From NCBI GenBank assembly GCA_043757795.1, contig JAYVOT010001068.1, positions 1-38,135 of the forward strand: a stretch of DNA of 38,135 bases. The letters run 5' to 3'. Position numbers and translations under genes: made by a program. The stretch comes from Chthonomonadaceae bacterium. Lineage in GTDB: Bacteria > Armatimonadota > Chthonomonadetes > Chthonomonadales > Chthonomonadaceae. Below, one piece after another: positions 1-38,135 of the stretch (position 1 is the first letter of the stretch; every line of letters starts with the position of its first letter). Under the pieces are notes generated by a model. That model saw nothing but the letters and a program-made list of their open reading frames with translations. It searched no databases and was not told the DNA's origin.

Positions 1-314
1 ACCGTCCGTGGTTTAGTTTGGCTTTTACACCAATATTCTACTTCACAAACGATACAAGTCACTCCATCCCTGATTCAAAAATGGCTAAAGTCCAGTGATA
101 AAGGTATTGTGATATAGGAGGGATTGTCACTTCCTATACAGAAATAACAATAATCAATCATTTCAGCGCCTTTCATTTACTATAGCGGGAATCATTTGAT
201 CTTCAATTCCGTATTTATGAATACTCCTTTACTTTAAGTACAAAAAAACGCCGAAAATCACTTGCGATTAATAGTCTTGGTTCACACTCCAAGCAAGGGA
301 CACCGCATACTCCG

Positions 315-1031
315 ATGCACTATAAGAAAGCTCCTATAACTGAAGCTATCATAGATATACAAGTGGCGTTGCCCGAGTCGACGACACTTGAGCTACTTGA
401 AGATTTCCAAAAGAAAATACCAGAGTTTAGTGAAAAACAAAATGTAACCCTTAATAAAATTTTAATGCAACAGGACAATTCGCCAAATGTGGAGCAAATT
501 CACACTGGTTATCAGTTTATCAAGGAGGATAAAAAGAGGATTGTGCAGGTCGCTCAACACGGTTTTGCTTACTTGTGGCTAGCTCCCTATGAAAATTGGG
601 AAGCGTTTTCGACAGAGGCAAAATCCAAGTGGGATATTTATAGGAATCATTTTAATCCAGGTGGCGTCAACCGAATCGCTCTGAGATACATCAATAGAAT
701 CGACATTCCTGAAAACAAGATAGATCTGAAGGAATATCTGCATACCGCGCCTGAAATTGCAAAAGGTTTGCCTCAACTCCTAGTCGGTTACTTCATGCAA
801 CTGACGTTGCCTATGGAAGAATTCCAGAGCATGGCAACAATCAAGCAAACGATAGTTCCTCCTCCTATCCCTCATGTGACATCGATTTTATTGGACATTG
901 AAACGTACAGAGACGTCGATGCGCCTCAGTCATCGCAAGAAATATGGGAAGCCTTCGAACAGTTGAGGGCAGCCAAAAATAAAGTATTCGAACACACGCT
1001 TACAGAAAAGACAAAGGAGTTTATCAAATGA
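315..1031 (+). CDS. TIGR04255-like uncharacterised protein (238 aa)
   Basis: Long ORF. The N-terminal K-APITEAIIDIQV pattern and ~240 aa size resemble the uncharacterised TIGR04255 family (recalled from memory, not searched). Its stop overlaps the next start (ATGA at 1028-1031). Confidence 0.7.
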   Translation: MHYKKAPITEAIIDIQVALPESTTLELLEDFQKKIPEFSEKQNVTLNKILMQQDNSPNVEQIHTGYQFIKEDKKRIVQVAQHGFAYLWLAPYENWEAFSTEAKSKWDIYRNHFNPGGVNRIALRYINRIDIPENKIDLKEYLHTAPEIAKGLPQLLVGYFMQLTLPMEEFQSMATIKQTIVPPPIPHVTSILLDIETYRDVDAPQSSQEIWEAFEQLRAAKNKVFEHTLTEKTKEFIK

Positions 1032-1600
1032 GTTTTCTTTGCCTCGGATATCGTCCACCTCAATCAAAAACTATTCCTGCTGCTAAAAGTGATGCTCATG
1101 TCAATAGCATTTTTAGCTCGCTCGATTCAGAATATCCAGGCTACATCGGCAGTCGACTTCCAGCTATCGATGAGAGCGAATTCATCCTGTTCTATACTCA
1201 AGCGACATCTCTGAAAAATCCTCCAAGTTCTGTTTTGTGGTTGCGGAAAGCCGGAGAGCGATTGTCTCAAATTTCACAGTTGAAAGAGGATTGGAATGAC
1301 GAAGGGGCGCTTCCGGTCTCTAAAAATGTGATCATGTTAGTATTCGATTTCATTACCGAGGTCGCTCAACGCGCTACAGGTGTCGAAGAGCTATTCACAC
1401 CCTCTATTTTTCCGACCATCGAGGGTGGAATCGAGCTTTATTGGAAAACTCTAGAACAACAAAGATCGCTCACGTTTTGTGATGGGACTGAAGCAGTGGA
1501 AGAGATGAAGCAACTCTTTGACGCCCATGCCGAGTTTCGGTTGACACCTCTGGAAGAAGCAGAAAAAATCGCTTTAGAGATGCTTCAATCACCCAGATAA
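1028..1600 (+). CDS. Hypothetical protein (190 aa), translationally coupled to upstream gene
   Basis: ATGA start/stop overlap with 315..1031. No family recognised. Confidence 0.65.
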   Translation: MSFLCLGYRPPQSKTIPAAKSDAHVNSIFSSLDSEYPGYIGSRLPAIDESEFILFYTQATSLKNPPSSVLWLRKAGERLSQISQLKEDWNDEGALPVSKNVIMLVFDFITEVAQRATGVEELFTPSIFPTIEGGIELYWKTLEQQRSLTFCDGTEAVEEMKQLFDAHAEFRLTPLEEAEKIALEMLQSPR

Positions 1601-1618
1601 AAGGGATCAGGCAACATA

Positions 1619-2098
1619 GTGTCTCAACCAGGCGAAGGATCGAAAGGATATGTATATCGCAGAGTTGCTTCAGAACACATTGACAAGCATACAGAAAATG
1701 TATCTCCTCAGGCATTTAGAGTAAGAGAAAACGAACAAGGACTATCGGTTTTTCGCGCGGATATAGCATCGCCTTACGATGTCATCAATCAACGCTTTCA
1801 GACTGCGGTCGAACTCTCTCAAGACGAAGGGTCAAAGAGGCGGCTCAAAGAGGCAGACTTTCTTAGAAATAATCCTGATGTCGAATCGATAATAAAGAAT
1901 CGAACTTTTTTAGTTGTTGCAATACCAATCGAAGAAATTGAGAAGATGGGGTTTCAATTTGGAGTTCTCGACGAAAATGGGCATCTGAATGTCGAAGGTT
2001 CTGTTTCGGAATTTAAGATGAATGCCCCACTACTGGCAAAACATTCGAGATTGTTGTCAGTAGAGGAATGTCTACGCAAGGAATTGATTTCATTTTAG
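1619..2098 (+). CDS. Hypothetical protein (159 aa)
   Basis: GTG start 18 nt after the upstream stop, same strand, with AAAGGGA upstream. No family recognised. Confidence 0.6.
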   Translation: MSQPGEGSKGYVYRRVASEHIDKHTENVSPQAFRVRENEQGLSVFRADIASPYDVINQRFQTAVELSQDEGSKRRLKEADFLRNNPDVESIIKNRTFLVVAIPIEEIEKMGFQFGVLDENGHLNVEGSVSEFKMNAPLLAKHSRLLSVEECLRKELISF

Positions 2099-2292
2099 CC
2101 GAACGCTTAGAGGAGCATCGATAGAGTTTTTTACATGAGAATTTGGCTGGTTCCGGTCAGGGGACGAAGCTGTCTTCTCGCAAATTGTCGCCTAGCTTTT
2201 GTCTCCTCGAAGGGCAAGGAAGATGGTGGAAACAGTCACGGCGAGGAAAAAGGCAGGCAAGTCCGAGATTTTCCAAATAAGGAAGTAGTAAT

Positions 2293-2324
2293 CCCCCCAA
2301 AGCATTTTAGCTTTCGGGGGGGGG
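2293..2324. terminator. Strong C6/G9 stem-loop (CCCCCCAAAGC-atttta-GCTTT(C)GGGGGG) in a long non-coding gap
   Basis: Read directly from the sequence. It lies ~200 nt downstream of the 315..2098 operon. There is no clear U-tract, so a terminator role is uncertain. Confidence 0.3.
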
Positions 2325-2590
2325 TGTTTAGGCGCGTCAACAGGGTAAGTGTAGAAAATCCTACCCGCGAAAACTACCGGGTGCGTCAGGTATATAAGCG
2401 CCTTTTGTATCCACAGGCTGGGTCGTTGCAGTCAATTTTAATCACTCGATATTTTCCTTTCGAATATTCAGGTTGCAGATAGAAACCTATCGTATGCAAG
2501 CCGAAAAAACAAAACATGTTTTCAAACCGACTTCGTTTACAGGTAAAGTTTACTTGTGACAATTCAATGACCTCTTTTGGGAGATGAGCT

Positions 2591-3577
2591 ATGGCGCGAT
2601 TTACCCGCATTCTCTTATTGTTTGCCATCTTGACATATTATGCAGTCGCCCCGCGCACGGTCGCGGCGCAAAACGAACGCAGCTTCGTATCGGTCCCGAA
2701 CTATTTTCCTGCGAAACCGGACAATCTGCAACTCGGTCCGACGCATGGCGGCGTCGCGGTAGACCGAGCCGGAAATGTCTACATGAGCACGGACACGGAG
2801 CGCGGAATACTTGTCTTCGGAGCGAACGGCAAATATCTGCGATGCTTCGGGCCAACTCAGATACATGGACTTTTTCTGCAACGTGAGAAAGACGGTCTAT
2901 TTCTCTACGCTGCGAGACCCAACTTTCACGAGGTTCTCAAGATCAAAACGGATGGAACGATCGCCTGGAAAATGGGTTACCCTGAAGCCTCCGGCGTCTA
3001 TGCCAAAGCAGACGAATTCAACCCCACGAATATGGTCGCCTTGCCGGACGGTACGATTTTCGTAGCGGACGGATACGGCAAGAATTACATTCACAAGTAT
3101 GATCGCGACCGTAAATACATCAAGTCGTTCGGAGGACCAGGCGGCTCACCGGCTGAGGACGGAAAATTCAACCGATGTCATGGGTTAGCGGTCGATTTGC
3201 GGGGCAAAAAACCGATGCTCATCGTTTGCAATCGGGAAAGCGGGCGAGTTGAGCAGTGGGACACGGATGGAAATTTGGTGAAGGTCTTGCTGAGAGATTT
3301 GAGAATGCCGGCAACTGCGCACGTTTCCGGAGACTATGTCGCTGTAGGCGAACTGAAGGGGCGCGTCACTATTCTGGGCAAGGACAATCGCATCGTGGCG
3401 CAAGTCGGCGACAATCCTAATGAATCTCAGCGCGCCAACTACGGCTTGGATCCCTCTCAATGGACTGAAGGCATTTGCAATTCCGTTCACGGCGTCTCTT
3501 TCGACCGAGCGGGCAATCTGGTCGTCGCGGAGTGGAGTCAGTTCGGGAGGATCCTCAAGTTCGCCGTCAAGAAGTGA
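2591..3577 (+). CDS. Secreted NHL-repeat / six-bladed beta-propeller protein (PAL-like)
   Basis: GGGAGA RBS 7 nt upstream. Signal peptide MARFTRILLLFAILTYYAVAPRTVAAQ. Repeated NHL-like blades (GVAVDRAGNVYM, LPDGTIFVADGYG, HGLAVD, HGVSFDRAGNLVVAEW). Confidence 0.8.
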   Translation: MARFTRILLLFAILTYYAVAPRTVAAQNERSFVSVPNYFPAKPDNLQLGPTHGGVAVDRAGNVYMSTDTERGILVFGANGKYLRCFGPTQIHGLFLQREKDGLFLYAARPNFHEVLKIKTDGTIAWKMGYPEASGVYAKADEFNPTNMVALPDGTIFVADGYGKNYIHKYDRDRKYIKSFGGPGGSPAEDGKFNRCHGLAVDLRGKKPMLIVCNRESGRVEQWDTDGNLVKVLLRDLRMPATAHVSGDYVAVGELKGRVTILGKDNRIVAQVGDNPNESQRANYGLDPSQWTEGICNSVHGVSFDRAGNLVVAEWSQFGRILKFAVKK

Positions 3578-3588
3578 CGGCTAGTGTA

Positions 3589-3691
3589 AACGATGACGCC
3601 CATGATGAGAGGGATAGCACGAATATAAGTCGAGATCGCCGCTCCCAACTCGAATTATCATGTCAATCCTTCAATCATGGACGTCATCGTT
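3589..3691. terminator. Long hairpin (18-nt arms, 17/18 complementary, 67-nt loop) between the NHL gene and the secA-3' remnant
   Basis: aacgatgacgcccatgat (3589-3606) pairs with atcatggacgtcatcgtt (3674-3691). It may be the ancestral bidirectional terminator. Confidence 0.35.
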
Positions 3692-3698
3692 CAGACAA

Positions 3699-3762
3699 CC
3701 AACTCAGCTACTTCCCGTGACATTGCTAATAATTCTTGCCGCTTCCGCACCAGTAGACGTCG
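3699..3762 (-). pseudogene. Degenerate copy of the secA 3' end (SEC-C motif fragment with an in-frame stop)
   Basis: The minus strand reads D V Y W C G S G K N Y * Q C H G K *, against the secA C-terminus CWCGSGKKYKQCHGK*. My ungapped hand alignment to 7932..7995 gives 56/64 identical, including bases beyond the stop codon. Confidence 0.75.
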
Positions 3763-3782
3763 ATGCAAAAATGAACAGTCGT

Positions 3783-4382
3783 TTATGATCTTGCGAACAG
3801 CAGTAAGCGTTTTACATCCCCTTGATCCGCCTCCTGCAAAGCCTTTATGTACTCCCGCCTCGTTTCGCTGCTCTCCGCTATCGAGCCTGAACCCCAGGAG
3901 AATCGCTTCTGTCCATTACGCTGTAAAAGAAGTTCGGCGGCAAGACGAGCATGGCGACCATTGCCATTTGGAAAGGGATGAATTACAACCAACTCATGGT
4001 GAAAACGAACCGCCAAGTCGTCCCAGGCGCTATCCATGTTTTTAATTTGATACAGAGTATTGCCGCAAAGCTGTTCCAGACGCATGGGTATCTGCTCGAA
4101 TGAGACGCCGATGTTCGTTTGCGCGCGACGAAACTGACCCGCCCAACGCCATGTGAATGAGAACATTTTTTGGTGGAGTTTGCGAAGCGAAACAACCTGC
4201 AGAATGTCTTTGTCCGCGCCCTTTGCCCGCTTCGCCCATTGCATCGCTTGAAAAATGTTTCGCGCCTCAAAATCGTTCAGTTCCGCCTGAAGCGTCAGGT
4301 TGGGGATGAGTCCTGCAATCGAATCCAGGTCTAATGGAGTGGCTCCATCCGGGGAATCGAAGTTCACTTGCCGACCTCCCAA
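3783..4382 (-). CDS. Fic/DOC family protein ('mobile mystery protein B' type)
   Basis: Fic motif HPFPNGNGRHARL. Size and pairing with an upstream HTH gene fit this type. The track start is TTG at 4382; GTG at 4367 (GTGA overlap with the upstream stop) is an alternative start. Confidence 0.9.
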   Translation of the reverse strand: MGGRQVNFDSPDGATPLDLDSIAGLIPNLTLQAELNDFEARNIFQAMQWAKRAKGADKDILQVVSLRKLHQKMFSFTWRWAGQFRRAQTNIGVSFEQIPMRLEQLCGNTLYQIKNMDSAWDDLAVRFHHELVVIHPFPNGNGRHARLAAELLLQRNGQKRFSWGSGSIAESSETRREYIKALQEADQGDVKRLLLFARS

Positions 4383-4840
4383 ATCTCGCGACTCAGCGTT
4401 CGAATCATCTCCTGAGCCAATTCGCGACGCTCACTCTCCACCTCATCCGGCAATCGACCCTGCGCTTCCAACCGCATGGAATGTTCGACGCGCTGAAGTT
4501 GTTCCTCCGCACGAATTTCCGCCTGTCGCATCAAAGTCGCTTCCAGAGAGTCGTTCGGGACGAGCGCGTAAACGAGCGTGCATTCCATCGCCTCTGCCAA
4601 CTTACGTAGGCTTTTGAGGGCGATGGTTTCCATCTCTTCAGAACGTTCCAATTTCGCGATCGTCGGTTGCGAGACTCCGACTCGTTGAGCCAACTGCAGG
4701 GAAGTCATCCCAAGAGCGTCGCGAATCTCTCTAACCCAGCCTTTGCGGGGTCGAGGTGTGCGTACGAACGGCTGAAGCGTTTTCAGCTGTTTGTCCAGTT
4801 GTCGTCTGCGTAAAGGATTTGCGGATAGATTTGATCTCAT
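4364..4840 (-). CDS. XRE-type HTH protein ('mobile mystery protein A' type)
   Basis: HTH segment GMTSLQLAQRVGVSQPTIAKLERSE. I chose ATG 4840 (MRSNLSANPL...) over the track start at 4906, which lies inside the promoter palindrome. Confidence 0.85.
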   Translation of the reverse strand: MRSNLSANPLRRRQLDKQLKTLQPFVRTPRPRKGWVREIRDALGMTSLQLAQRVGVSQPTIAKLERSEEMETIALKSLRKLAEAMECTLVYALVPNDSLEATLMRQAEIRAEEQLQRVEHSMRLEAQGRLPDEVESERRELAQEMIRTLSREIWEVGK

Positions 4841-4851
4841 AATATAGCCTT

Positions 4852-4884
4852 TAGGGTATTGAAATATAATAATATTATACCCTA
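4852..4884 (-). promoter_or_regulatory. Promoter/operator of the HTH-Fic operon: 8-bp inverted repeat TAGGGTAT-N17-ATACCCTA overlapping a TATAAT -10 box
   Basis: On the minus strand this reads ccttgTAGGGTATAATattattatatttcaATACCCTAaagg, 12 nt upstream of ATG 4840. TATAAT is at 4874..4879. Confidence 0.55.
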
Positions 4885-5378
4885 CAAGGTATAATTTCGT
4901 GTACATATTTCCTTAAACAGAGACTCCCAAGATTAAAGGACTTGCACAATCATAAGTCGGGAATATCGCTCCTTATTGGGATCGTCAAGTCAATCTCTTA
5001 ATTATGAGCGTTATGGTTTAAACTGTATGTAACTATTGAGACTACGTGCGTATTTACGCCAGTGTTCTCACGCATTGCCCCTAGTTGTCACAATTGCAAG
5101 TGAAATCATATTAAATATTAACTTTTCAAAAAATAGTTGCCAATAAGGCAAAAATAGTTAAAACGACCCTAGTATTTTCTTGCGAAGCAGAGTAGTCTAT
5201 CTTTATTAGCGGATACGTCGACTTGAACGAGCAACGATTGCAGAAAGCATGGGCAGGCGGGTTTTCAATTTGAATTTCCTCTCACTCTCTCGCTGTTGAA
5301 CTAACATGGATCAGCAAGCGACACCAGCAACACAACTTATTCAGTTCAATATTGAACTCATTTCAAAGGAGAATTTGC

Positions 5379-5926
5379 ATGAAACACATTACCGCGCTCC
5401 TCACTATCGGAATCTTAGCAGTATTTGCCTCTTCGTCAGCGACAGCGCAACTCACATCCTCTTGTACAGCCGCCCTGACGCCGGACAAGCCAATAAATAC
5501 CAGTATGTTCTATCGATAGTCCCCTATCAGTTCCCAATACAATACATACCGTTTCCAGTACCCATAGAAGGAACCTTTACTGCCAGGTTCAACAATGCAC
5601 CGCTATCTCCTGCAGTCACCTTCTTTCCGGTCGTGTCAGTGAGTTTGAGTTTTGGCGTACAAGGTTTGTCAATAATTACCCCACCGCTGGTTGTCGTAAA
5701 TTCTACTCCCGTCACTCTGACACAAGGCACCTTTGCGGTCGTTCCAAATGGCGCTTTTAGCCCTCTTTTTGCGTCGACCCCTCCAGTGGGTTCAGGTTAC
5801 TTTTTCGCTCAGTGCGGGATAGCAGTATTCGGATCGATTTCAAATACCAATCTTGTGCCGATTCTTGGAGCATCAAGCTCAAAAACCGACGGTCATTCCG
5901 TATGGATGATCGGAGGATTGCCTTAA
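5379..5926 (+). pseudogene. Secreted protein of unknown function, apparently frameshifted
   Basis: AAGGAG RBS 7 nt before ATG 5379. A clear signal peptide MKHITALLTIGILAVFASSSATAQ is followed by a stop at 5517-5519. A long open frame (-1 relative; the track ORF 5306..5926) continues to 5926 without an RBS or signal peptide of its own. Confidence 0.5.
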
Positions 5927-6092
5927 ATGATTGAGCCTCAAAGTATTTTTGCCTGAGGGTGAGATTCGCTGAAATGACTGTCGAAAAGTCGCAGTACATT
6001 ATCCAAATAAGTTTCTTGAATGCAAGTAAACTTAAATTCCGAGGTTGCGCGTTTGATGAAAGACGTGCAACCTCATCTTCCAAAAAGGACAC

Positions 6093-7814
6093 ATGGAGAT
6101 GTCATTGAAGTTAGCCAGGACTATTATTCTATGTATGTTGTTTTGCTCCATCATCACATTTTGTTCGGCTCAAAACAAGTTTGAGGAGTGGATCGCCTCA
6201 GACATGCAGTTGAAGAAAACCGTCACGCTTCAAGAATCCAAAATCACAATTGGAGAGGCTCTAGAATCATTCTCTAAACAAACAGGCGTGAAAATATTGA
6301 TGGACGCCAATAAGGAGGAATCAGGAGTAATACTCTTCGTTCAATTAAAGAACGCTCCACTCTCGAACTGCCTGGAAGCAATAAGTTCTCTTCTTAGCCT
6401 ACCTGGGTCAAAGTGGCAGTGGGGCAGAAACGGAGATAAAAATCTGTGGACTTATAAACTGTACCCGGCAAATCTTTCTGATCTTAATACTGCGTTAATG
6501 TTTCAGGCGCGAATGGTCTTCAAAGACTACATCAACTTTCTTCGAGGCTATGTCGCGCTTTCCCCCGAAGAACAGGACAAACAAAAGAGCCTCTACTCGA
6601 AAGCAATGTTGCAGAAAAGCGATGAAATTGCAAATTCCTATCTCGACGCCAGAAAAACGGGCTTGATCAGTAGAATGAAAGTGATGCTCGAATTGCTTGA
6701 CGACCAGGGAATTGACGCAGTATTGGACGGAGGAGCAGTTACCCTTCCGCTCGCAAAACTCTCTGAAACCCAAAAAGCGTCGATGTTGCAATTCTACGAT
6801 CAATATCATCTAGAGTTCACGCAAAATGGAGTTCCAGTGTTGCCGCCCTCGCCTGAGCCAACAAGTATGACCATTTACTCAATCCGGAGCCGAGGCTCGA
6901 AAAAAGACGTTATGCCCAATATACTGCTTTCGGTTGGAGAATCTGGCGCTTTGACTTGTCTTGGTCCAGGAGTGTCAGGAGGGTTTATCCAGTCTTTAGG
7001 GCGAGCTTGGATTCTTCCGGGCGATTTGCAATCGCATCCGCTAGAAGAGACACTCATACCTGATGCTAAAATCGAGAACAAGACAATTGAAGTGAAAGAG
7101 CATTCGGCGCAAGACGCAAAGCGTCATAATCCGGTTGACGCTGACTACGAAAGACGCTTAACTGAGACTTCAATTTTGACAAAAATTCCAATCATAGCGG
7201 TGCTCAATCAGGAAGTTCGTCAAAGTTATGTAGAACCTGCAAACAAAACAACAGTAAAGAAGTTCCTTGATACAACCGAAGGCAGATCGTCCATAAAAAT
7301 CCACAAATGGCGAAAAGGAATACTTTTGATTTCAACCCCGGATTGGATGATGTCCCAGGACAGCATTATTCCTGTGAATCTCATGAAAAAAATGCAAACC
7401 CTACTCTACAGACCCTCTAAAGAAGGCTTGTTGAAAGAAGTTTGCAGCCAGTTCGTTACTCTCAGCCCGCCGCAGTGGCAGGGATTGGTTGAGAAATTTC
7501 CACAATTCAGCATAGTCTTTAGAAACCGGAGTTTCTTTCGATTCGCCTCGAACTACCCTGATTTATTTCGGAGTACAGGACTCATCCTCAATCAAGATAT
7601 CATCCAGGCGATCCTGTCTTGCTTGCCGGAATCTAATAGGAAGACGCTTGACAACGCGCGTAAAGTCCGTTGGAGAACAGTCAACGCAGGAACGAAAGAA
7701 GAAGATTTCCCTGTCTTTGCCTTTGAAGTTTTGGACAGCAAGGGGGCATGGAAAGAACTCGTTTCATCCGCTTATCTCTCCGTTATGGATGGAAGCGATT
7801 ATTCCCCGCAATAA
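6093..7814 (+). CDS. Secreted protein of unknown function (573 aa)
   Basis: AAGGA RBS. Signal peptide MEMSLKLARTIILCMLFCSIITFCSAQ. No domain confidently recognised; the N-terminal VTLQESKITIGEALESFSKQTGVKILMD is weakly STN-like. Confidence 0.8.
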   Translation: MEMSLKLARTIILCMLFCSIITFCSAQNKFEEWIASDMQLKKTVTLQESKITIGEALESFSKQTGVKILMDANKEESGVILFVQLKNAPLSNCLEAISSLLSLPGSKWQWGRNGDKNLWTYKLYPANLSDLNTALMFQARMVFKDYINFLRGYVALSPEEQDKQKSLYSKAMLQKSDEIANSYLDARKTGLISRMKVMLELLDDQGIDAVLDGGAVTLPLAKLSETQKASMLQFYDQYHLEFTQNGVPVLPPSPEPTSMTIYSIRSRGSKKDVMPNILLSVGESGALTCLGPGVSGGFIQSLGRAWILPGDLQSHPLEETLIPDAKIENKTIEVKEHSAQDAKRHNPVDADYERRLTETSILTKIPIIAVLNQEVRQSYVEPANKTTVKKFLDTTEGRSSIKIHKWRKGILLISTPDWMMSQDSIIPVNLMKKMQTLLYRPSKEGLLKEVCSQFVTLSPPQWQGLVEKFPQFSIVFRNRSFFRFASNYPDLFRSTGLILNQDIIQAILSCLPESNRKTLDNARKVRWRTVNAGTKEEDFPVFAFEVLDSKGAWKELVSSAYLSVMDGSDYSPQ

Positions 7815-7891
7815 ACATTACGAGCCTCCTCATTCCAAGAAGCGCTGGCTCCCAAATAAAGTGATTTCAACCGGAAGAAACCAAACGAAAA

Positions 7892-7920
7892 CGCCCCCCG
7901 CCAAAACTTGGCGGGGGGCG
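7892..7920. terminator. Bidirectional rho-independent terminator between the convergent 573-aa gene and secA
   Basis: CGCCCCCCGCCAA-aac-TTGGCGGGGGGCG stem. It is followed by gttttcgttt on the secA strand. Confidence 0.8.
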
Positions 7921-7940
7921 TCTCTGCAAATCCAACTCAA

Positions 7941-12471: not shown

Positions 12472-12504
12472 CTGACAATCGCACTACGCGAAGAATGGAA
12501 CGAC

Positions 12505-13560: not shown

Positions 13561-13580
13561 GCGGTTTCCCTCATCCCCTA

Positions 13581-24524: not shown

Positions 24525-24556
24525 GTCCCTCCTCCCGAAGCTTCGGCAGGAGGGAC
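24525..24556. terminator. Palindromic hairpin (mirror of 13581..13612)
   Basis: Exact reverse-complement copy. Confidence 0.5.
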
Positions 24557-24576
24557 TAGGGGATGAGGGAAACCGC

Positions 24577-25632: not shown

Positions 25633-25665
25633 GTCGTTCCATTCTTCGCGTAGTGCGATTGTCAG

Positions 25666-26313: not shown

Positions 26314-26827
26314 TGTCATCCTTTCATGCGTCAAAATTTCTGTTCAATACGATTTATTGGCGGGATATTCCGGATAAATACGATTCCATTTTCCAGATTC
26401 ATCACAGATACTTTATGTCGAGACGATCGGGTATCGGCAATTGACTTCCATTCAAGTCAGTGAAAGGGACAAGTAAAAACTTATCGGCTCTCGGACTCGG
26501 CTCGAGAAGAAGAACATAGTCCAGGAAGAGACGCTAACGAAATTGAAGAACGTGTTTCATTTTACCCTGTTTTCGCAACGCTCATTTTGAGGAGGTCCGC
26601 ATTTTGCCCCCAATTGCGGATTCTCTCCCAAAGCGCCGACAACCTTTTTAGTAGGAACCCAATGCATACTTTAAAACGTATAGGCAGAAGGGAAGTCTAA
26701 GGGTATACTGGTTTGGTTGCATTGATCGACTATCGTCCAACCTAGCTAATTTTCCCAAATCATTGTCCAATCCAATCGCCTCGCGCCCCTGAAGCGACGC
26801 CGATTTTTACTGAGGTATACGTCCATC

Positions 26828-30196: not shown

Positions 30197-30216
30197 TTGA
30201 GTTGGATTTGCAGAGA

Positions 30217-30245
30217 CGCCCCCCGCCAAGTTTTGGCGGGGGGCG
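30217..30245. terminator. Bidirectional terminator (mirror of 7892..7920)
   Basis: Exact reverse-complement copy. Confidence 0.8.
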
Positions 30246-30322
30246 TTTTCGTTTGGTTTCTTCCGGTTGAAATCACTTTATTTGGGAGCCAGCGCTTCTT
30301 GGAATGAGGAGGCTCGTAATGT

Positions 30323-32044
30323 TTATTGCGGGGAATAATCGCTTCCATCCATAACGGAGAGATAAGCGGATGAAACGAGTTCTTTCCATGCCCCCTTGCT
30401 GTCCAAAACTTCAAAGGCAAAGACAGGGAAATCTTCTTCTTTCGTTCCTGCGTTGACTGTTCTCCAACGGACTTTACGCGCGTTGTCAAGCGTCTTCCTA
30501 TTAGATTCCGGCAAGCAAGACAGGATCGCCTGGATGATATCTTGATTGAGGATGAGTCCTGTACTCCGAAATAAATCAGGGTAGTTCGAGGCGAATCGAA
30601 AGAAACTCCGGTTTCTAAAGACTATGCTGAATTGTGGAAATTTCTCAACCAATCCCTGCCACTGCGGCGGGCTGAGAGTAACGAACTGGCTGCAAACTTC
30701 TTTCAACAAGCCTTCTTTAGAGGGTCTGTAGAGTAGGGTTTGCATTTTTTTCATGAGATTCACAGGAATAATGCTGTCCTGGGACATCATCCAATCCGGG
30801 GTTGAAATCAAAAGTATTCCTTTTCGCCATTTGTGGATTTTTATGGACGATCTGCCTTCGGTTGTATCAAGGAACTTCTTTACTGTTGTTTTGTTTGCAG
30901 GTTCTACATAACTTTGACGAACTTCCTGATTGAGCACCGCTATGATTGGAATTTTTGTCAAAATTGAAGTCTCAGTTAAGCGTCTTTCGTAGTCAGCGTC
31001 AACCGGATTATGACGCTTTGCGTCTTGCGCCGAATGCTCTTTCACTTCAATTGTCTTGTTCTCGATTTTAGCATCAGGTATGAGTGTCTCTTCTAGCGGA
31101 TGCGATTGCAAATCGCCCGGAAGAATCCAAGCTCGCCCTAAAGACTGGATAAACCCTCCTGACACTCCTGGACCAAGACAAGTCAAAGCGCCAGATTCTC
31201 CAACCGAAAGCAGTATATTGGGCATAACGTCTTTTTTCGAGCCTCGGCTCCGGATTGAGTAAATGGTCATACTTGTTGGCTCAGGCGAGGGCGGCAACAC
31301 TGGAACTCCATTTTGCGTGAACTCTAGATGATATTGATCGTAGAATTGCAACATCGACGCTTTTTGGGTTTCAGAGAGTTTTGCGAGCGGAAGGGTAACT
31401 GCTCCTCCGTCCAATACTGCGTCAATTCCCTGGTCGTCAAGCAATTCGAGCATCACTTTCATTCTACTGATCAAGCCCGTTTTTCTGGCGTCGAGATAGG
31501 AATTTGCAATTTCATCGCTTTTCTGCAACATTGCTTTCGAGTAGAGGCTCTTTTGTTTGTCCTGTTCTTCGGGGGAAAGCGCGACATAGCCTCGAAGAAA
31601 GTTGATGTAGTCTTTGAAGACCATTCGCGCCTGAAACATTAACGCAGTATTAAGATCAGAAAGATTTGCCGGGTACAGTTTATAAGTCCACAGATTTTTA
31701 TCTCCGTTTCTGCCCCACTGCCACTTTGACCCAGGTAGGCTAAGAAGAGAACTTATTGCTTCCAGGCAGTTCGAGAGTGGAGCGTTCTTTAATTGAACGA
31801 AGAGTATTACTCCTGATTCCTCCTTATTGGCGTCCATCAATATTTTCACGCCTGTTTGTTTAGAGAATGATTCTAGAGCCTCTCCAATTGTGATTTTGGA
31901 TTCTTGAAGCGTGACGGTTTTCTTCAACTGCATGTCTGAGGCGATCCACTCCTCAAACTTGTTTTGAGCCGAACAAAATGTGATGATGGAGCAAAACAAC
32001 ATACATAGAATAATAGTCCTGGCTAACTTCAATGACATCTCCAT
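30323..32044 (-). CDS. Secreted protein of unknown function, 573 aa (mirror copy of 6093..7814)
   Basis: Exact reverse-complement copy. Confidence 0.8.
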   Translation of the reverse strand: MEMSLKLARTIILCMLFCSIITFCSAQNKFEEWIASDMQLKKTVTLQESKITIGEALESFSKQTGVKILMDANKEESGVILFVQLKNAPLSNCLEAISSLLSLPGSKWQWGRNGDKNLWTYKLYPANLSDLNTALMFQARMVFKDYINFLRGYVALSPEEQDKQKSLYSKAMLQKSDEIANSYLDARKTGLISRMKVMLELLDDQGIDAVLDGGAVTLPLAKLSETQKASMLQFYDQYHLEFTQNGVPVLPPSPEPTSMTIYSIRSRGSKKDVMPNILLSVGESGALTCLGPGVSGGFIQSLGRAWILPGDLQSHPLEETLIPDAKIENKTIEVKEHSAQDAKRHNPVDADYERRLTETSILTKIPIIAVLNQEVRQSYVEPANKTTVKKFLDTTEGRSSIKIHKWRKGILLISTPDWMMSQDSIIPVNLMKKMQTLLYRPSKEGLLKEVCSQFVTLSPPQWQGLVEKFPQFSIVFRNRSFFRFASNYPDLFRSTGLILNQDIIQAILSCLPESNRKTLDNARKVRWRTVNAGTKEEDFPVFAFEVLDSKGAWKELVSSAYLSVMDGSDYSPQ

Positions 32045-32210
32045 GTGTCCTTTTTGGAAGATGAGGTTGCACGTCTTTCATCAAACGCGCAACCTCGGAA
32101 TTTAAGTTTACTTGCATTCAAGAAACTTATTTGGATAATGTACTGCGACTTTTCGACAGTCATTTCAGCGAATCTCACCCTCAGGCAAAAATACTTTGAG
32201 GCTCAATCAT

Positions 32211-32758
32211 TTAAGGCAATCCTCCGATCATCCATACGGAATGACCGTCGGTTTTTGAGCTTGATGCTCCAAGAATCGGCACAAGATTGGTATTTGAAAT
32301 CGATCCGAATACTGCTATCCCGCACTGAGCGAAAAAGTAACCTGAACCCACTGGAGGGGTCGACGCAAAAAGAGGGCTAAAAGCGCCATTTGGAACGACC
32401 GCAAAGGTGCCTTGTGTCAGAGTGACGGGAGTAGAATTTACGACAACCAGCGGTGGGGTAATTATTGACAAACCTTGTACGCCAAAACTCAAACTCACTG
32501 ACACGACCGGAAAGAAGGTGACTGCAGGAGATAGCGGTGCATTGTTGAACCTGGCAGTAAAGGTTCCTTCTATGGGTACTGGAAACGGTATGTATTGTAT
32601 TGGGAACTGATAGGGGACTATCGATAGAACATACTGGTATTTATTGGCTTGTCCGGCGTCAGGGCGGCTGTACAAGAGGATGTGAGTTGCGCTGTCGCTG
32701 ACGAAGAGGCAAATACTGCTAAGATTCCGATAGTGAGGAGCGCGGTAATGTGTTTCAT
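32211..32758 (-). pseudogene. Frameshifted secreted protein (mirror copy of 5379..5926)
   Basis: Exact reverse-complement copy. Confidence 0.5.
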
Positions 32759-33252
32759 GCAAATTCTCCTTTGAAATGAGTTCAATATTGAACTGAATAA
32801 GTTGTGTTGCTGGTGTCGCTTGCTGATCCATGTTAGTTCAACAGCGAGAGAGTGAGAGGAAATTCAAATTGAAAACCCGCCTGCCCATGCTTTCTGCAAT
32901 CGTTGCTCGTTCAAGTCGACGTATCCGCTAATAAAGATAGACTACTCTGCTTCGCAAGAAAATACTAGGGTCGTTTTAACTATTTTTGCCTTATTGGCAA
33001 CTATTTTTTGAAAAGTTAATATTTAATATGATTTCACTTGCAATTGTGACAACTAGGGGCAATGCGTGAGAACACTGGCGTAAATACGCACGTAGTCTCA
33101 ATAGTTACATACAGTTTAAACCATAACGCTCATAATTAAGAGATTGACTTGACGATCCCAATAAGGAGCGATATTCCCGACTTATGATTGTGCAAGTCCT
33201 TTAATCTTGGGAGTCTCTGTTTAAGGAAATATGTACACGAAATTATACCTTG

Positions 33253-33285
33253 TAGGGTATAATATTATTATATTTCAATACCCTA
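33253..33285 (+). promoter_or_regulatory. Operator/promoter palindrome of the HTH-Fic operon (mirror of 4852..4884)
   Basis: TAGGGTATAAT...ATACCCTA; TATAAT is at 33258..33263 and the ATG at 33297. Confidence 0.55.
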
Positions 33286-33296
33286 AAGGCTATATT

Positions 33297-33773
33297 ATGA
33301 GATCAAATCTATCCGCAAATCCTTTACGCAGACGACAACTGGACAAACAGCTGAAAACGCTTCAGCCGTTCGTACGCACACCTCGACCCCGCAAAGGCTG
33401 GGTTAGAGAGATTCGCGACGCTCTTGGGATGACTTCCCTGCAGTTGGCTCAACGAGTCGGAGTCTCGCAACCGACGATCGCGAAATTGGAACGTTCTGAA
33501 GAGATGGAAACCATCGCCCTCAAAAGCCTACGTAAGTTGGCAGAGGCGATGGAATGCACGCTCGTTTACGCGCTCGTCCCGAACGACTCTCTGGAAGCGA
33601 CTTTGATGCGACAGGCGGAAATTCGTGCGGAGGAACAACTTCAGCGCGTCGAACATTCCATGCGGTTGGAAGCGCAGGGTCGATTGCCGGATGAGGTGGA
33701 GAGTGAGCGTCGCGAATTGGCTCAGGAGATGATTCGAACGCTGAGTCGCGAGATTTGGGAGGTCGGCAAGTGA
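33297..33773 (+). CDS. XRE-type HTH 'mobile mystery protein A' type (mirror copy of 4364..4840)
   Basis: Exact reverse-complement copy. Confidence 0.85.
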   Translation: MRSNLSANPLRRRQLDKQLKTLQPFVRTPRPRKGWVREIRDALGMTSLQLAQRVGVSQPTIAKLERSEEMETIALKSLRKLAEAMECTLVYALVPNDSLEATLMRQAEIRAEEQLQRVEHSMRLEAQGRLPDEVESERRELAQEMIRTLSREIWEVGK

Positions 33774-34354
33774 ACTTCGATTCCCCGGATGGAGCCACTC
33801 CATTAGACCTGGATTCGATTGCAGGACTCATCCCCAACCTGACGCTTCAGGCGGAACTGAACGATTTTGAGGCGCGAAACATTTTTCAAGCGATGCAATG
33901 GGCGAAGCGGGCAAAGGGCGCGGACAAAGACATTCTGCAGGTTGTTTCGCTTCGCAAACTCCACCAAAAAATGTTCTCATTCACATGGCGTTGGGCGGGT
34001 CAGTTTCGTCGCGCGCAAACGAACATCGGCGTCTCATTCGAGCAGATACCCATGCGTCTGGAACAGCTTTGCGGCAATACTCTGTATCAAATTAAAAACA
34101 TGGATAGCGCCTGGGACGACTTGGCGGTTCGTTTTCACCATGAGTTGGTTGTAATTCATCCCTTTCCAAATGGCAATGGTCGCCATGCTCGTCTTGCCGC
34201 CGAACTTCTTTTACAGCGTAATGGACAGAAGCGATTCTCCTGGGGTTCAGGCTCGATAGCGGAGAGCAGCGAAACGAGGCGGGAGTACATAAAGGCTTTG
34301 CAGGAGGCGGATCAAGGGGATGTAAAACGCTTACTGCTGTTCGCAAGATCATAA
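33755..34354 (+). CDS. Fic/DOC 'mobile mystery protein B' type (mirror copy of 3783..4382)
   Basis: Exact reverse-complement copy. Confidence 0.9.
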   Translation: MGGRQVNFDSPDGATPLDLDSIAGLIPNLTLQAELNDFEARNIFQAMQWAKRAKGADKDILQVVSLRKLHQKMFSFTWRWAGQFRRAQTNIGVSFEQIPMRLEQLCGNTLYQIKNMDSAWDDLAVRFHHELVVIHPFPNGNGRHARLAAELLLQRNGQKRFSWGSGSIAESSETRREYIKALQEADQGDVKRLLLFARS

Positions 34355-34374
34355 ACGACTGTTCATTTTTGCAT

Positions 34375-34438
34375 CGACGTCTACTGGTGCGGAAGCGGCA
34401 AGAATTATTAGCAATGTCACGGGAAGTAGCTGAGTTGG
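34375..34438 (+). pseudogene. Degenerate secA 3'-end fragment (mirror of 3699..3762)
   Basis: Exact reverse-complement copy. Reads gac gtc tac tgg tgc gga agc ggc aag aat tat TAG caa tgt cac ggg aag TAG. Confidence 0.75.
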
Positions 34439-34559
34439 TTGTCTGAACGATGACGTCCATGATTGAAGGATTGACATGATAATTCGAGTTGGGAGCGGCG
34501 ATCTCGACTTATATTCGTGCTATCCCTCTCATCATGGGCGTCATCGTTTACACTAGCCG

Positions 34560-35546
34560 TCACTTCTTGACGGCGAACTTGAGGATCCTCCCGAACTGAC
34601 TCCACTCCGCGACGACCAGATTGCCCGCTCGGTCGAAAGAGACGCCGTGAACGGAATTGCAAATGCCTTCAGTCCATTGAGAGGGATCCAAGCCGTAGTT
34701 GGCGCGCTGAGATTCATTAGGATTGTCGCCGACTTGCGCCACGATGCGATTGTCCTTGCCCAGAATAGTGACGCGCCCCTTCAGTTCGCCTACAGCGACA
34801 TAGTCTCCGGAAACGTGCGCAGTTGCCGGCATTCTCAAATCTCTCAGCAAGACCTTCACCAAATTTCCATCCGTGTCCCACTGCTCAACTCGCCCGCTTT
34901 CCCGATTGCAAACGATGAGCATCGGTTTTTTGCCCCGCAAATCGACCGCTAACCCATGACATCGGTTGAATTTTCCGTCCTCAGCCGGTGAGCCGCCTGG
35001 TCCTCCGAACGACTTGATGTATTTACGGTCGCGATCATACTTGTGAATGTAATTCTTGCCGTATCCGTCCGCTACGAAAATCGTACCGTCCGGCAAGGCG
35101 ACCATATTCGTGGGGTTGAATTCGTCTGCTTTGGCATAGACGCCGGAGGCTTCAGGGTAACCCATTTTCCAGGCGATCGTTCCATCCGTTTTGATCTTGA
35201 GAACCTCGTGAAAGTTGGGTCTCGCAGCGTAGAGAAATAGACCGTCTTTCTCACGTTGCAGAAAAAGTCCATGTATCTGAGTTGGCCCGAAGCATCGCAG
35301 ATATTTGCCGTTCGCTCCGAAGACAAGTATTCCGCGCTCCGTGTCCGTGCTCATGTAGACATTTCCGGCTCGGTCTACCGCGACGCCGCCATGCGTCGGA
35401 CCGAGTTGCAGATTGTCCGGTTTCGCAGGAAAATAGTTCGGGACCGATACGAAGCTGCGTTCGTTTTGCGCCGCGACCGTGCGCGGGGCGACTGCATAAT
35501 ATGTCAAGATGGCAAACAATAAGAGAATGCGGGTAAATCGCGCCAT
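34560..35546 (-). CDS. Secreted NHL-repeat beta-propeller protein (mirror copy of 2591..3577)
   Basis: Exact reverse-complement copy. Confidence 0.8.
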   Translation of the reverse strand: MARFTRILLLFAILTYYAVAPRTVAAQNERSFVSVPNYFPAKPDNLQLGPTHGGVAVDRAGNVYMSTDTERGILVFGANGKYLRCFGPTQIHGLFLQREKDGLFLYAARPNFHEVLKIKTDGTIAWKMGYPEASGVYAKADEFNPTNMVALPDGTIFVADGYGKNYIHKYDRDRKYIKSFGGPGGSPAEDGKFNRCHGLAVDLRGKKPMLIVCNRESGRVEQWDTDGNLVKVLLRDLRMPATAHVSGDYVAVGELKGRVTILGKDNRIVAQVGDNPNESQRANYGLDPSQWTEGICNSVHGVSFDRAGNLVVAEWSQFGRILKFAVKK

Positions 35547-36038
35547 AGCTCATCTCCCAAAAGAGGTCATTGAATTGTCACAAGTAAACTTTACCTGTAA
35601 ACGAAGTCGGTTTGAAAACATGTTTTGTTTTTTCGGCTTGCATACGATAGGTTTCTATCTGCAACCTGAATATTCGAAAGGAAAATATCGAGTGATTAAA
35701 ATTGACTGCAACGACCCAGCCTGTGGATACAAAAGGCGCTTATATACCTGACGCACCCGGTAGTTTTCGCGGGTAGGATTTTCTACACTTACCCTGTTGA
35801 CGCGCCTAAACACCCCCCCCCGAAAGCTAAAATGCTTTGGGGGGATTACTACTTCCTTATTTGGAAAATCTCGGACTTGCCTGCCTTTTTCCTCGCCGTG
35901 ACTGTTTCCACCATCTTCCTTGCCCTTCGAGGAGACAAAAGCTAGGCGACAATTTGCGAGAAGACAGCTTCGTCCCCTGACCGGAACCAGCCAAATTCTC
36001 ATGTAAAAAACTCTATCGATGCTCCTCTAAGCGTTCGG

Positions 36039-36518
36039 CTAAAATGAAATCAATTCCTTGCGTAGACATTCCTCTACTGACAACAATCTCGAATGTTTTG
36101 CCAGTAGTGGGGCATTCATCTTAAATTCCGAAACAGAACCTTCGACATTCAGATGCCCATTTTCGTCGAGAACTCCAAATTGAAACCCCATCTTCTCAAT
36201 TTCTTCGATTGGTATTGCAACAACTAAAAAAGTTCGATTCTTTATTATCGATTCGACATCAGGATTATTTCTAAGAAAGTCTGCCTCTTTGAGCCGCCTC
36301 TTTGACCCTTCGTCTTGAGAGAGTTCGACCGCAGTCTGAAAGCGTTGATTGATGACATCGTAAGGCGATGCTATATCCGCGCGAAAAACCGATAGTCCTT
36401 GTTCGTTTTCTCTTACTCTAAATGCCTGAGGAGATACATTTTCTGTATGCTTGTCAATGTGTTCTGAAGCAACTCTGCGATATACATATCCTTTCGATCC
36501 TTCGCCTGGTTGAGACAC
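36039..36518 (-). CDS. Hypothetical protein, 159 aa (mirror copy of 1619..2098)
   Basis: Exact reverse-complement copy. Confidence 0.6.
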   Translation of the reverse strand: MSQPGEGSKGYVYRRVASEHIDKHTENVSPQAFRVRENEQGLSVFRADIASPYDVINQRFQTAVELSQDEGSKRRLKEADFLRNNPDVESIIKNRTFLVVAIPIEEIEKMGFQFGVLDENGHLNVEGSVSEFKMNAPLLAKHSRLLSVEECLRKELISF

Positions 36519-36536
36519 TATGTTGCCTGATCCCTT

Positions 36537-37109
36537 TTATCTGGGTGATTGAAGCATCTCTAAAGCGATTTTTTCTGCTTCTTCCAGAGGTGTCAACCGA
36601 AACTCGGCATGGGCGTCAAAGAGTTGCTTCATCTCTTCCACTGCTTCAGTCCCATCACAAAACGTGAGCGATCTTTGTTGTTCTAGAGTTTTCCAATAAA
36701 GCTCGATTCCACCCTCGATGGTCGGAAAAATAGAGGGTGTGAATAGCTCTTCGACACCTGTAGCGCGTTGAGCGACCTCGGTAATGAAATCGAATACTAA
36801 CATGATCACATTTTTAGAGACCGGAAGCGCCCCTTCGTCATTCCAATCCTCTTTCAACTGTGAAATTTGAGACAATCGCTCTCCGGCTTTCCGCAACCAC
36901 AAAACAGAACTTGGAGGATTTTTCAGAGATGTCGCTTGAGTATAGAACAGGATGAATTCGCTCTCATCGATAGCTGGAAGTCGACTGCCGATGTAGCCTG
37001 GATATTCTGAATCGAGCGAGCTAAAAATGCTATTGACATGAGCATCACTTTTAGCAGCAGGAATAGTTTTTGATTGAGGTGGACGATATCCGAGGCAAAG
37101 AAAACTCAT
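36537..37109 (-). CDS. Hypothetical protein, 190 aa (mirror copy of 1028..1600)
   Basis: Exact reverse-complement copy. Confidence 0.65.
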   Translation of the reverse strand: MSFLCLGYRPPQSKTIPAAKSDAHVNSIFSSLDSEYPGYIGSRLPAIDESEFILFYTQATSLKNPPSSVLWLRKAGERLSQISQLKEDWNDEGALPVSKNVIMLVFDFITEVAQRATGVEELFTPSIFPTIEGGIELYWKTLEQQRSLTFCDGTEAVEEMKQLFDAHAEFRLTPLEEAEKIALEMLQSPR

Positions 37110-37822
37110 TTGATAAACTCCTTTGTCTTTTCTGTAAGCGTGTGTTCGAATACTTTATTTTTGGCTGCCCTCAACTGTTCGAAGGCTTCCCATATTTCTT
37201 GCGATGACTGAGGCGCATCGACGTCTCTGTACGTTTCAATGTCCAATAAAATCGATGTCACATGAGGGATAGGAGGAGGAACTATCGTTTGCTTGATTGT
37301 TGCCATGCTCTGGAATTCTTCCATAGGCAACGTCAGTTGCATGAAGTAACCGACTAGGAGTTGAGGCAAACCTTTTGCAATTTCAGGCGCGGTATGCAGA
37401 TATTCCTTCAGATCTATCTTGTTTTCAGGAATGTCGATTCTATTGATGTATCTCAGAGCGATTCGGTTGACGCCACCTGGATTAAAATGATTCCTATAAA
37501 TATCCCACTTGGATTTTGCCTCTGTCGAAAACGCTTCCCAATTTTCATAGGGAGCTAGCCACAAGTAAGCAAAACCGTGTTGAGCGACCTGCACAATCCT
37601 CTTTTTATCCTCCTTGATAAACTGATAACCAGTGTGAATTTGCTCCACATTTGGCGAATTGTCCTGTTGCATTAAAATTTTATTAAGGGTTACATTTTGT
37701 TTTTCACTAAACTCTGGTATTTTCTTTTGGAAATCTTCAAGTAGCTCAAGTGTCGTCGACTCGGGCAACGCCACTTGTATATCTATGATAGCTTCAGTTA
37801 TAGGAGCTTTCTTATAGTGCAT
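37106..37822 (-). CDS. TIGR04255-like protein (mirror copy of 315..1031)
   Basis: Exact reverse-complement copy. Confidence 0.7.
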   Translation of the reverse strand: MHYKKAPITEAIIDIQVALPESTTLELLEDFQKKIPEFSEKQNVTLNKILMQQDNSPNVEQIHTGYQFIKEDKKRIVQVAQHGFAYLWLAPYENWEAFSTEAKSKWDIYRNHFNPGGVNRIALRYINRIDIPENKIDLKEYLHTAPEIAKGLPQLLVGYFMQLTLPMEEFQSMATIKQTIVPPPIPHVTSILLDIETYRDVDAPQSSQEIWEAFEQLRAAKNKVFEHTLTEKTKEFIK

Positions 37823-38135
37823 CGGAGTATGCGGTGTCCCTTGCTTGGAGTGTGAACCAAGACTATTAATCGCAAGTGATTTTCGGCGTTTTTTTGTACT
37901 TAAAGTAAAGGAGTATTCATAAATACGGAATTGAAGATCAAATGATTCCCGCTATAGTAAATGAAAGGCGCTGAAATGATTGATTATTGTTATTTCTGTA
38001 TAGGAAGTGACAATCCCTCCTATATCACAATACCTTTATCACTGGACTTTAGCCATTTTTGAATCAGGGATGGAGTGACTTGTATCGTTTGTGAAGTAGA
38101 ATATTGGTGTAAAAGCCAAACTAAACCACGGACGG

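Follow-up and report, generated by a model that had tools for sequence, protein, structure and literature searches.

A 38,135-base palindromic contig from Chthonomonadaceae almost certainly reflects an assembly artefact and not a genome feature

The contig described here raises the question of whether its palindrome belongs to a bacterial genome, as a hairpin telomere or an inverted duplication, or was created when the sequence was assembled. The window, that is, the whole stretch of DNA that was analyzed, is the entire 38,135-base contig, and its sulfatase cluster is recorded on that one contig. Positions 2..38135 form an exact palindrome in which position i is paired with position 38137-i; all 19,067 of the 19,067 pairs are complementary, with 0 mismatches. 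The centre lies between positions 19068 and 19069, where AATAGGGAGGTCAA is followed directly by TTGACCTCCCTATT, with no spacer, no unpaired loop, and no adaptor-like insert. The base counts of the window are symmetric (A 9646/T 9645, C 9422/G 9422) and its GC profile is mirror-symmetric about the centre. These observations bear out an earlier note on this DNA, which had described the whole window as a zero-spacer palindrome of 2 x 19,067 bp. The note had also paired the ORF at 315..1031 on the plus strand with 37106..37822 on the minus strand, and secA at 7941..11309 on the minus strand with 26828..30196 on the plus strand, and both pairs were confirmed by arithmetic and by the ORF list. Such a palindrome cannot have arisen by chance (about 4^-19067).

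Both halves of the contig stop on the same genomic base, unique flanks are absent, and only base 1 is unpaired. Because the palindrome takes up the whole contig, and its arms match with 0 mismatches in 19,067 pairs and to within 1 base in length, the two arms are not independent observations. The overall layout is as follows.

1..1, no strand: single unpaired base (A) at the 5' end, the sole asymmetry of the contig
1..314, no strand: outer arm end, AT-rich (37-41% GC) and non-coding, with no gene cut
2..19068, plus strand: left arm, 19,067 bp of unique sequence, an ordinary Chthonomonadaceae chromosomal segment
19059..19078, no strand: turn-around, GGGAGGTCAA/TTGACCTCCC, with no spacer, in non-coding AT-rich DNA
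19069..38135, minus strand: right arm, the exact reverse complement of the left arm, with no independent information

The gene content of the arm is that of ordinary single-copy chromosomal DNA of Chthonomonadaceae (Armatimonadota), from a soil-type bacterium. The arm carries SecA, ApbC/Mrp, a sulfatase, an SDR, DinB, and a Fic/HTH pair, so that the secA and apbC genes reported in the earlier note are both present, the latter as an ApbC/Mrp-type ATPase. Low-GC accessory genes adjoin the outer end and encode a TIGR04255-family protein and a protein with a partial PDC-M32A-like match. Hairpin telomeres are resolved by telomere resolvases of the ResT/TelA/TelN type. No telomere resolvase or recombinase was found among the arm proteins by searches of Pfam, NCBIfam, PHROGs, PADLOC, and PDB sequences, in agreement with the earlier statement that no protelomerase is present in the 19 kb. 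A divergent resolvase was also sought among the unannotated proteins, above all the product of a 573-aa ORF at 6093-7814, and this candidate was rejected; PHROGs, Pfam, NCBIfam, and PADLOC were all empty, and the sole PDB sequence match is unrelated and non-significant (E 0.58). The genes needed to follow the arm toward the centre are listed below.

7941..11309, minus strand: secA, 1122 aa, the chromosomal marker that places the arm in Chthonomonadaceae
15930..17321, minus strand: sulfatase, the last gene common to close relatives; collinearity with loci L058, L059, and L060 ends just centre-ward of it
17647..19068, minus strand: three-gene cassette, the innermost 1.4 kb, low-GC (34-45%) and strain-specific
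17703-18113, minus strand: cassette gene, 136 aa
18061-18582, minus strand: cassette gene, 173 aa
18579-18905/18968, minus strand: cassette gene, DUF3467
19069-20490, right arm: mirror copy of the cassette

The turn-around is located ∼160 bp upstream of the first gene of this island cassette and cuts no gene, and stops occur in all six frames across 18969-19068. No promoter or terminator consensus was found at the centre, and the centre motif is unique within the window, with no second copy that could form an operator pair or a telomere repeat. The exact centre contains an AATT/CAATTG site, and a head-to-head ligation of restriction fragments was therefore considered. It was dismissed as uninformative, because any even palindrome is centred on a palindromic 4-mer (1 in 16) or 6-mer (1 in 64); the outer end has no restriction site matching that of the centre. 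In the IMG/VR loci L061 and L062, the cassette is kept as an operon in mid-contig, adjoined by a methylase/Mrr-type restriction gene. This mid-contig position beside a restriction gene indicates that the cassette is a mobile module of the defence-island type and not a chromosome terminus. The fold-back thus falls within DNA that varies among strains, a setting in which assemblies are prone to break.

The closest independent sequences are ∼87-90% identical to the arm at the nucleotide level. In the three closest relatives (L058, L059, and L060) the cassette is absent and collinearity is lost at its edge. The centre-ward continuation consists of ordinary genes, zwf in L059 and pseudopilins in L058, so the corresponding point is not terminal in these two relatives, and the innermost 1.4 kb is specific to the strain of the window. 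None of the relatives showed a duplication of the arm segment. In four long, chromosome-scale Armatimonadota records, two of them labelled Chthonomonadaceae, secA is 0.46-2.5 Mb from the record ends. Across the secA neighborhoods of 56 GTDB representative loci, SecA is at most 72% identical and no neighboring genes are shared. The earlier note had proposed looking for a contig that runs past 19068 into unique sequence, and no such contig from the same strain turned up in IMG/VR, the JGI metagenomes, or the protein collection. A 28-mer from centre-adjacent DNA was absent from IMG/VR, and the DUF3467 protein and a 22-mer ending at the centre were absent from the JGI metagenomes. Exact-protein searches with the centre-nearest genes, the outer-end-nearest genes, and the sulfatase gave no matches and did not recover even the window's own copies, so that the record of the window is apparently masked or has differently called genes.

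Based on these findings, the palindrome is most likely a single 19-kb edge (unitig) of an assembly graph that was walked out and then back along its own reverse complement, rather than a structure of the genome. The assembler was presumably graph-based. In a de Bruijn graph, k-mers are common to both strands. If the end of an edge had no competing continuation, for example at a coverage gap or where a low-coverage branch was pruned in strain-variable DNA, its sole remaining link could be to its own reverse complement. Such a link could be supplied by a small number of fold-back chimeric reads, or by a short natural palindrome whose length equals or exceeds the smallest k, and the junction k-mers probably have one of these two origins. 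The maximal unbranched path would then spell X + rc(X). A unitig walked twice accounts for the zero spacer, the zero mismatches, the arms that end on the same base, and a contig that consists of the palindrome alone. The contig has this form, X + rc(X) without a spacer and with 0 mismatches in 19,067 pairs, and its halves end on the same base without unique flanks. In addition, a centre within a strain-specific low-GC cassette at a synteny breakpoint is the type of site expected for the end of an edge.

This behavior is documented. When a unitig ends in a "lonely inverted loop", the doubled graph provably spells it as an exact palindrome, each half of which must be the reverse complement of the other (Rahman & Medvedev 2022, PMC9528984). 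SPAdes and MEGAHIT emit such palindromes whole, and unitigs are unsafe at coverage gaps (PMC9528984). In the "double-strand hairpin" of rnaSPAdes, a chimeric edge links an edge to its reverse complement and gives a palindromic contig, and MDA data show similar connections (PMC6736328). SPAdes assemblies of M. bovis contained 81 whole-contig exact palindromes, which were reported as artefacts (PMC9455707), and further whole-contig palindromes in cyanobacterial single-cell assemblies were likewise reported as artefacts (10.1101/2023.06.06.543983). It should be noted that the organisms in these last two reports (PMC9455707, 10.1101/2023.06.06.543983) are not known for hairpin telomeres.

The odd length of the contig counts against a graph fold-back. 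A pure palindromic unitig has an even length, and base 1 therefore presumably reflects asymmetric handling of the two ends of the path. The extra 5' base could have been left by a walk that began at the first k-mer and was halted at the reverse complement of that k-mer. A dA-tailing remnant was rejected as the origin of base 1; a 5' A is seen, where a 3' A or a 5' T would be expected.

The earlier note had taken the arm ends on the same base as favoring a single molecule read out and back over a chromosomal inverted duplication. This point is not discriminating, since graph traversal equalizes the arms however the junction arose, be it at a true telomere or in a true inverted repeat. Junction k-mers from real palindromic DNA would give the same traversal, and symmetry alone is no proof of an artefact; the artefact verdict rests on priors and on context. 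An artefact of a physical kind can also be considered, in which one fold-back DNA molecule was read through its full length as a long read and retained as a contig; its source could be an inverted MDA/WGA chimera, a SMRTbell with one hairpin adaptor missing, or a nanopore template followed directly by its complement. We regard this origin as unlikely, although 19 kb is a typical long-read insert size, equal arms are natural for the two strands of one molecule, and a contig made up of the palindrome alone is what such a molecule would give. After WGA, long fragments are often palindromic, and reads of this form also result when a SMRTbell adaptor is missed (PMC6218980). However, independently read strands should show sequencing errors unless corrected, and the arms have 0 mismatches or indels over 19 kb. 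Overlapping reads that corrected such errors would also have carried the contig past the arm ends and left the arms unequal, contrary to what is seen. The centre has neither an adaptor remnant nor a junction scar, and the unpaired 5' A is not the base that dA-tailing predicts. The leading choice of the earlier note, a fold-back artefact kept as its own contig, is thus supported by the ordinary arm, the turn-around in a variable island, and the documented assembler behavior, but the missed adaptor or unsplit nanopore read that it proposed as the source fits poorly, because two independently read arms should differ by sequencing errors.

The two readings in which the junction exists in the cell have to explain the same symmetry. 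A closed hairpin telomere of a linear chromosome or chromid, or an unresolved head-to-head telomere junction, could have been read around its tip, with the assembler then retracing the edge. In favor of a telomere, the perfect palindrome at the centre lies in AT-rich, non-coding DNA and interrupts no gene, the DNA near it is low-GC and accessory, as is common at the ends of linear replicons, and the failure to find a same-strain continuation in the databases would fit such an end. We nevertheless consider this very unlikely. The perfect inverted duplication around a tip is present but non-specific, as an artefact looks alike. The 19 kb encodes no telomere resolvase, secA lies far inside the chromosome-scale records, the closest relatives run past the corresponding point into housekeeping genes, and the cassette adjoining the centre is internal in other contigs. 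The relatives share neither a terminal locus with the same end nor a common motif, and searches of the collections gave no further occurrence of the centre sequence, with no sign of a shared telomere motif. To our knowledge, no linear chromosome is known in Armatimonadota. In a long-read assembly the wrap-around would normally be joined to the remainder of the replicon, and the arms would be unequal. Hairpin telomeres of Borrelia do assemble as exact terminal inverse duplications of 5-18 kb, but short-read libraries have essentially zero coverage across true hairpins (10.1101/2025.07.18.665644). A real junction in the full sense, a linear Chthonomonadaceae chromosome or chromid with a covalent hairpin telomere and a defence-type accessory cassette at its tip, is harder still to credit; it would be the first hairpin-telomere replicon in Armatimonadota, and its resolvase would have to be encoded in another part of the genome. 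The least probable origin, in our estimate, is a real spacer-less chromosomal inverted duplication of at least 19 kb that collapsed onto one edge, with the contig ending where different flanks branch. In bacteria, long spacer-less palindromes are known targets of SbcCD-type nucleases and are not stably maintained, and large natural inverted repeats normally have a unique spacer. Neither differing outer flanks nor a unique spacer is present here, the essential genes secA and apbC would be doubled without one difference between the copies, and no relative duplicates the segment. A collapsed inverted repeat would likewise be expected to leave a graph assembler with arms of equal length that show zero differences, as can be deduced from the work on unitigs (PMC9528984).

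Taken together, nothing positive supports a hairpin telomere or a real inverted duplication, and the contig is almost certainly an assembly artefact. Its unique information is a 19-kb stretch of the chromosome of an uncultured Chthonomonadaceae bacterium, and its biological weight is small and would grow only if the junction were real. The finding matters more for data hygiene. In a contig of this kind every gene is counted twice, spurious "paralogues" and spurious whole-length inverted terminal repeats appear, and a telomere or a complete linear element may seem to be present. Palindromic contigs therefore need to be halved or flagged before downstream use.

Among known systems, the contig most resembles the palindromic unitigs and "double-strand hairpins" of SPAdes and MEGAHIT, with which it shares the form X + rc(X), the zero spacer, the halves ending on the same base, and the lack of flanks. 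In de Bruijn assemblers these arise at dead or low-coverage ends of edges; the ideal palindromic unitig is even in length, whereas the contig here is odd, with one extra 5' base. Inverted MDA/WGA chimeras and PacBio reads with missed adaptors, as treated by Pacasus (PMC6218980), are alike in folding back on themselves and in having arms of long-read size, but in raw long reads each arm has errors of its own, and here there are none, nor is there an adaptor at the centre. The Borrelia wrap-around (10.1101/2025.07.18.665644) is alike in its exact inverse duplication and in its spacer-less, AT-rich turn-around. It differs in being attached to its replicon, in appearing with long reads only, and in having conserved telomere motifs and a genome-encoded resolvase, none of which is shown by the contig described here.

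Pairing each position i with 38137-i across the full window gave 19,067 complementary pairs and 0 mismatches, and the sole unpaired base in the contig is base 1 (A). The turn-around lies between positions 19068 and 19069, where the sequence reads ...AATAGGGAGGTCAA on one side and TTGACCTCCCTATT... on the other, with no loop or adaptor-like insert, and the mirror symmetry extends to the base counts and the GC profile. The palindrome spans the whole contig, as the cluster containing the window's own sulfatase sits on a single contig of 38,135 bases. The earlier note had described an exact, spacer-less palindrome, which is right to the base, and the ORF pairs it offered as examples recur in the ORF list with unchanged coordinates. 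The unique information in the window thus amounts to only 19,067 bases, the annotated content of which is listed below.

Annotated features of the left arm, from the outer end to the centre (coordinates and strand where assigned)
315-2482: TIGR04255-family protein and several hypothetical proteins
NHL-repeat protein
3783-4906, minus strand: Fic/DOC protein (199 aa) and overlapping XRE-type HTH protein (180 aa)
Hypothetical protein, 573 aa
7941-11309: SecA, 1122 aa
GDSL hydrolase
ApbC/Mrp-type Fe-S ATPase
DinB-family protein
Short-chain dehydrogenase (SDR)
15930-17321, minus strand: sulfatase
17703-18968 (mirror 19169-20434): three small genes, the DUF3467 protein last

The arm is ordinary chromosomal DNA, neither phage nor plasmid, and contains no tRNA. 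SecA assigns it to the Chthonomonadaceae (Armatimonadota). The top SecA matches among GTDB representatives are proteins from MAGs that are 65-72% identical, and therefore no species-level relative is present among these representatives. At this level of SecA identity, no conserved gene order was found around secA in the GTDB representative loci. SecA itself is unusually long, and its DEAD-like domain occupies residues 9-461 as compared to a 290-position profile, which implies that the domain carries large insertions. Since relatives from the Chthonomonadaceae align over the full length, the long SecA is a lineage trait rather than an artefact.

The Fic/DOC gene overlaps the upstream XRE-type HTH gene by 19 bases, and its product matches the PADLOC candidate defence family PDC-S04 (E 4e-23) and SoFic. 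A 64-nt direct repeat (88% identical) occurs at 3699-3762 and 7932-7995. One copy is the 3' end of secA, coding for the SEC-C zinc motif ...CWCGSGKKYKQCHGK*, and the other is the DNA directly downstream of the Fic gene. Translation in the Fic frame past the Fic stop codon gives ...DVYWCGSGKNY*QCHGK*, which looks like a decayed SEC-C tail that may once have been fused to Fic and is now severed by stop codons. At the low-GC outer end (315-1600), the gene after that of the TIGR04255-family protein (E 8e-41) encodes 190 aa that partially match the PADLOC candidate PDC-M32A (E 7e-10). The arm thus has a further accessory or defence-like patch at the opposite end from the three small genes.

The surroundings of the turn-around were compared with related contigs. 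No gene is cut at either arm end; bases 1-314 and ~18906-19068 consist of AT-rich DNA in which each of the six frames contains stops. The GC content is 37-46% in the outer 2 kb and 34-45% in the inner 1.4 kb, versus 50-58% in the core; both arm ends are low-GC accessory DNA. The closest independent contigs carry sulfatases with 93-97% protein identity and 87-90% DNA identity. Collinearity between these relatives and the window covers the stretch from the SDR to the sulfatase and breaks off at ~20490 (mirror 17647). The SDR side of the sulfatase is conserved in L059 and L060, two contigs matched via the sulfatase. On the centre-ward side the relatives have differing, ordinary genes: L059 carries glucose-6-phosphate dehydrogenase (zwf), L058 carries prepilin-type/pseudopilin genes, and L057 carries other, unrelated genes; these three contigs, each with different neighbours, share 79-89% nucleotide identity with the window. 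L060 is too short past the sulfatase to reveal its centre-side neighbour. Because collinearity stops 1.4 kb short of the centre, the innermost 1.4 kb is DNA inserted at a synteny breakpoint and specific to this strain. The window's sulfatase forms a singleton cluster in a large protein collection, where the window record is apparently masked or part-indexed: the cassette proteins do not match even themselves and exact look-ups fail.

The inserted DNA is a complete three-gene module: a low-GC operon in which the DUF3467 gene is followed by genes for proteins of ~170 aa and ~135 aa, neighbouring genes overlapping at their stop and start codons. The cassette is absent from the closest relatives, and the two products encoded downstream of DUF3467 gave no match in Pfam, NCBIfam, PADLOC or PDB. 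The same gene order recurs at 31-43% amino acid identity, mid-contig, in two IMG/VR contigs, one 52 kb and one 86 kb long (4481-5754 in L061), in both cases with a DNA-methylase/Mrr-type restriction fusion gene immediately upstream. The cassette is possibly a so far uncharacterised module of mobile or defence-associated type. The turn-around thus lies upstream of a cassette of the mobile, defence-island type, at a distance of ~160 bp, and metagenome contigs tend to break off where strains differ in such DNA. In L061, a 9+2+9 palindrome lies ~95 bp upstream of the DUF3467 gene, a hint, but no more, of operator-like palindromes in this position.

Taken together, zero differences and equal arms mean that the second arm adds no observation of its own. 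Had the arms been read independently, off a real molecule or off two copies in the genome, 19 kb should have left a few discrepancies or more between them through sequencing or consensus errors, and they would not need to share an end base. The reading ranked highest in the earlier note, a fold-back artefact kept as a contig, is supported, with the mechanism refined to graph traversal: the contig is likely a graph fold-back, in which one assembly-graph edge would have been spelled once and then again as its reverse complement. The junction k-mers could derive from a few fold-back chimeric fragments, or the promoter region of the cassette could hold a short natural palindrome that supplied them, where the true continuation was absent or had been pruned; the graph mechanism accounts for the symmetry regardless of what created the junction. 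We infer that the extra 5' base would be the leftover of a walk begun at the first k-mer and halted on meeting its reverse complement. An A-tailing remnant was rejected as the origin of base 1, being the wrong base at the wrong end. In a doubled de Bruijn graph, a unitig ending in a "lonely inverted loop" (the (k-1)-suffix of the last k-mer is its own reverse complement, without a competing edge) is output as an exact palindrome with halves that are necessarily reverse complements; SPAdes and MEGAHIT have been demonstrated to output these palindromes in full, ABySS breaks at palindromic edges, and unitigs proved unsafe under incomplete coverage (PMC9528984). In rnaSPAdes the same topology is a "double-strand hairpin" made by chimeric reads, with similar connections in MDA data (PMC6736328). 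Whole-contig palindromes, regarded by the respective authors as artefacts, number 81 in SPAdes assemblies of M. bovis (PMC9455707) and occur in Synechococcus single-cell assemblies (10.1101/2023.06.06.543983). Equal arms are also expected if one physical fold-back molecule was sequenced as a single long read, arising as a WGA chimera or because an adaptor was missed (PMC6218980); however, such a read should show independent errors between its arms, plus an adaptor at the centre where one was missed, and neither is seen, which makes this origin unlikely. With both routes combined, the contig is very probably an artefact of some kind, and the palindrome is almost certainly not a real genomic feature.

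SbcCD-type nucleases cleave long spacer-less palindromes. A real 19-kb inverted duplication would be such a substrate and, while it would likewise collapse to equal arms in the graph, it would double essential genes without a single difference and has no counterpart in any relative; we regard it as the least probable reading. A hairpin telomere is only slightly less improbable. As the earlier note had remarked of protelomerases, no resolvase was found in the 19-kb arm (Pfam, NCBIfam, PHROGs, PADLOC and PDB sequence searches), and the centre motif was found nowhere else in the window, IMG/VR or JGI metagenomes. Relatives run on past the corresponding point, the cassette beside the centre is internal in L061 and L062, the two IMG/VR contigs, and in four chromosome-scale related Armatimonadota records (two labelled Chthonomonadaceae) 0.46-2.5 Mb separate secA from the ends of the record. 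To our knowledge, no linear replicon is known in the Armatimonadota. No same-strain contig through the centre was found in IMG/VR, JGI metagenomes or the protein collection. The artefact verdict rests on base rates, the lack of a positive telomere sign and a turn-around in DNA prone to breaking assemblies, and the contig is best cut at 19068 with one arm kept. Real hairpin telomeres do assemble as exact inverse duplications of 5-18 kb, and Illumina libraries have essentially zero coverage at the hairpin wrap-around (10.1101/2025.07.18.665644). Such telomeres, however, show up in long-read data, joined to the rest of the replicon, with conserved motifs and a genome-encoded resolvase.
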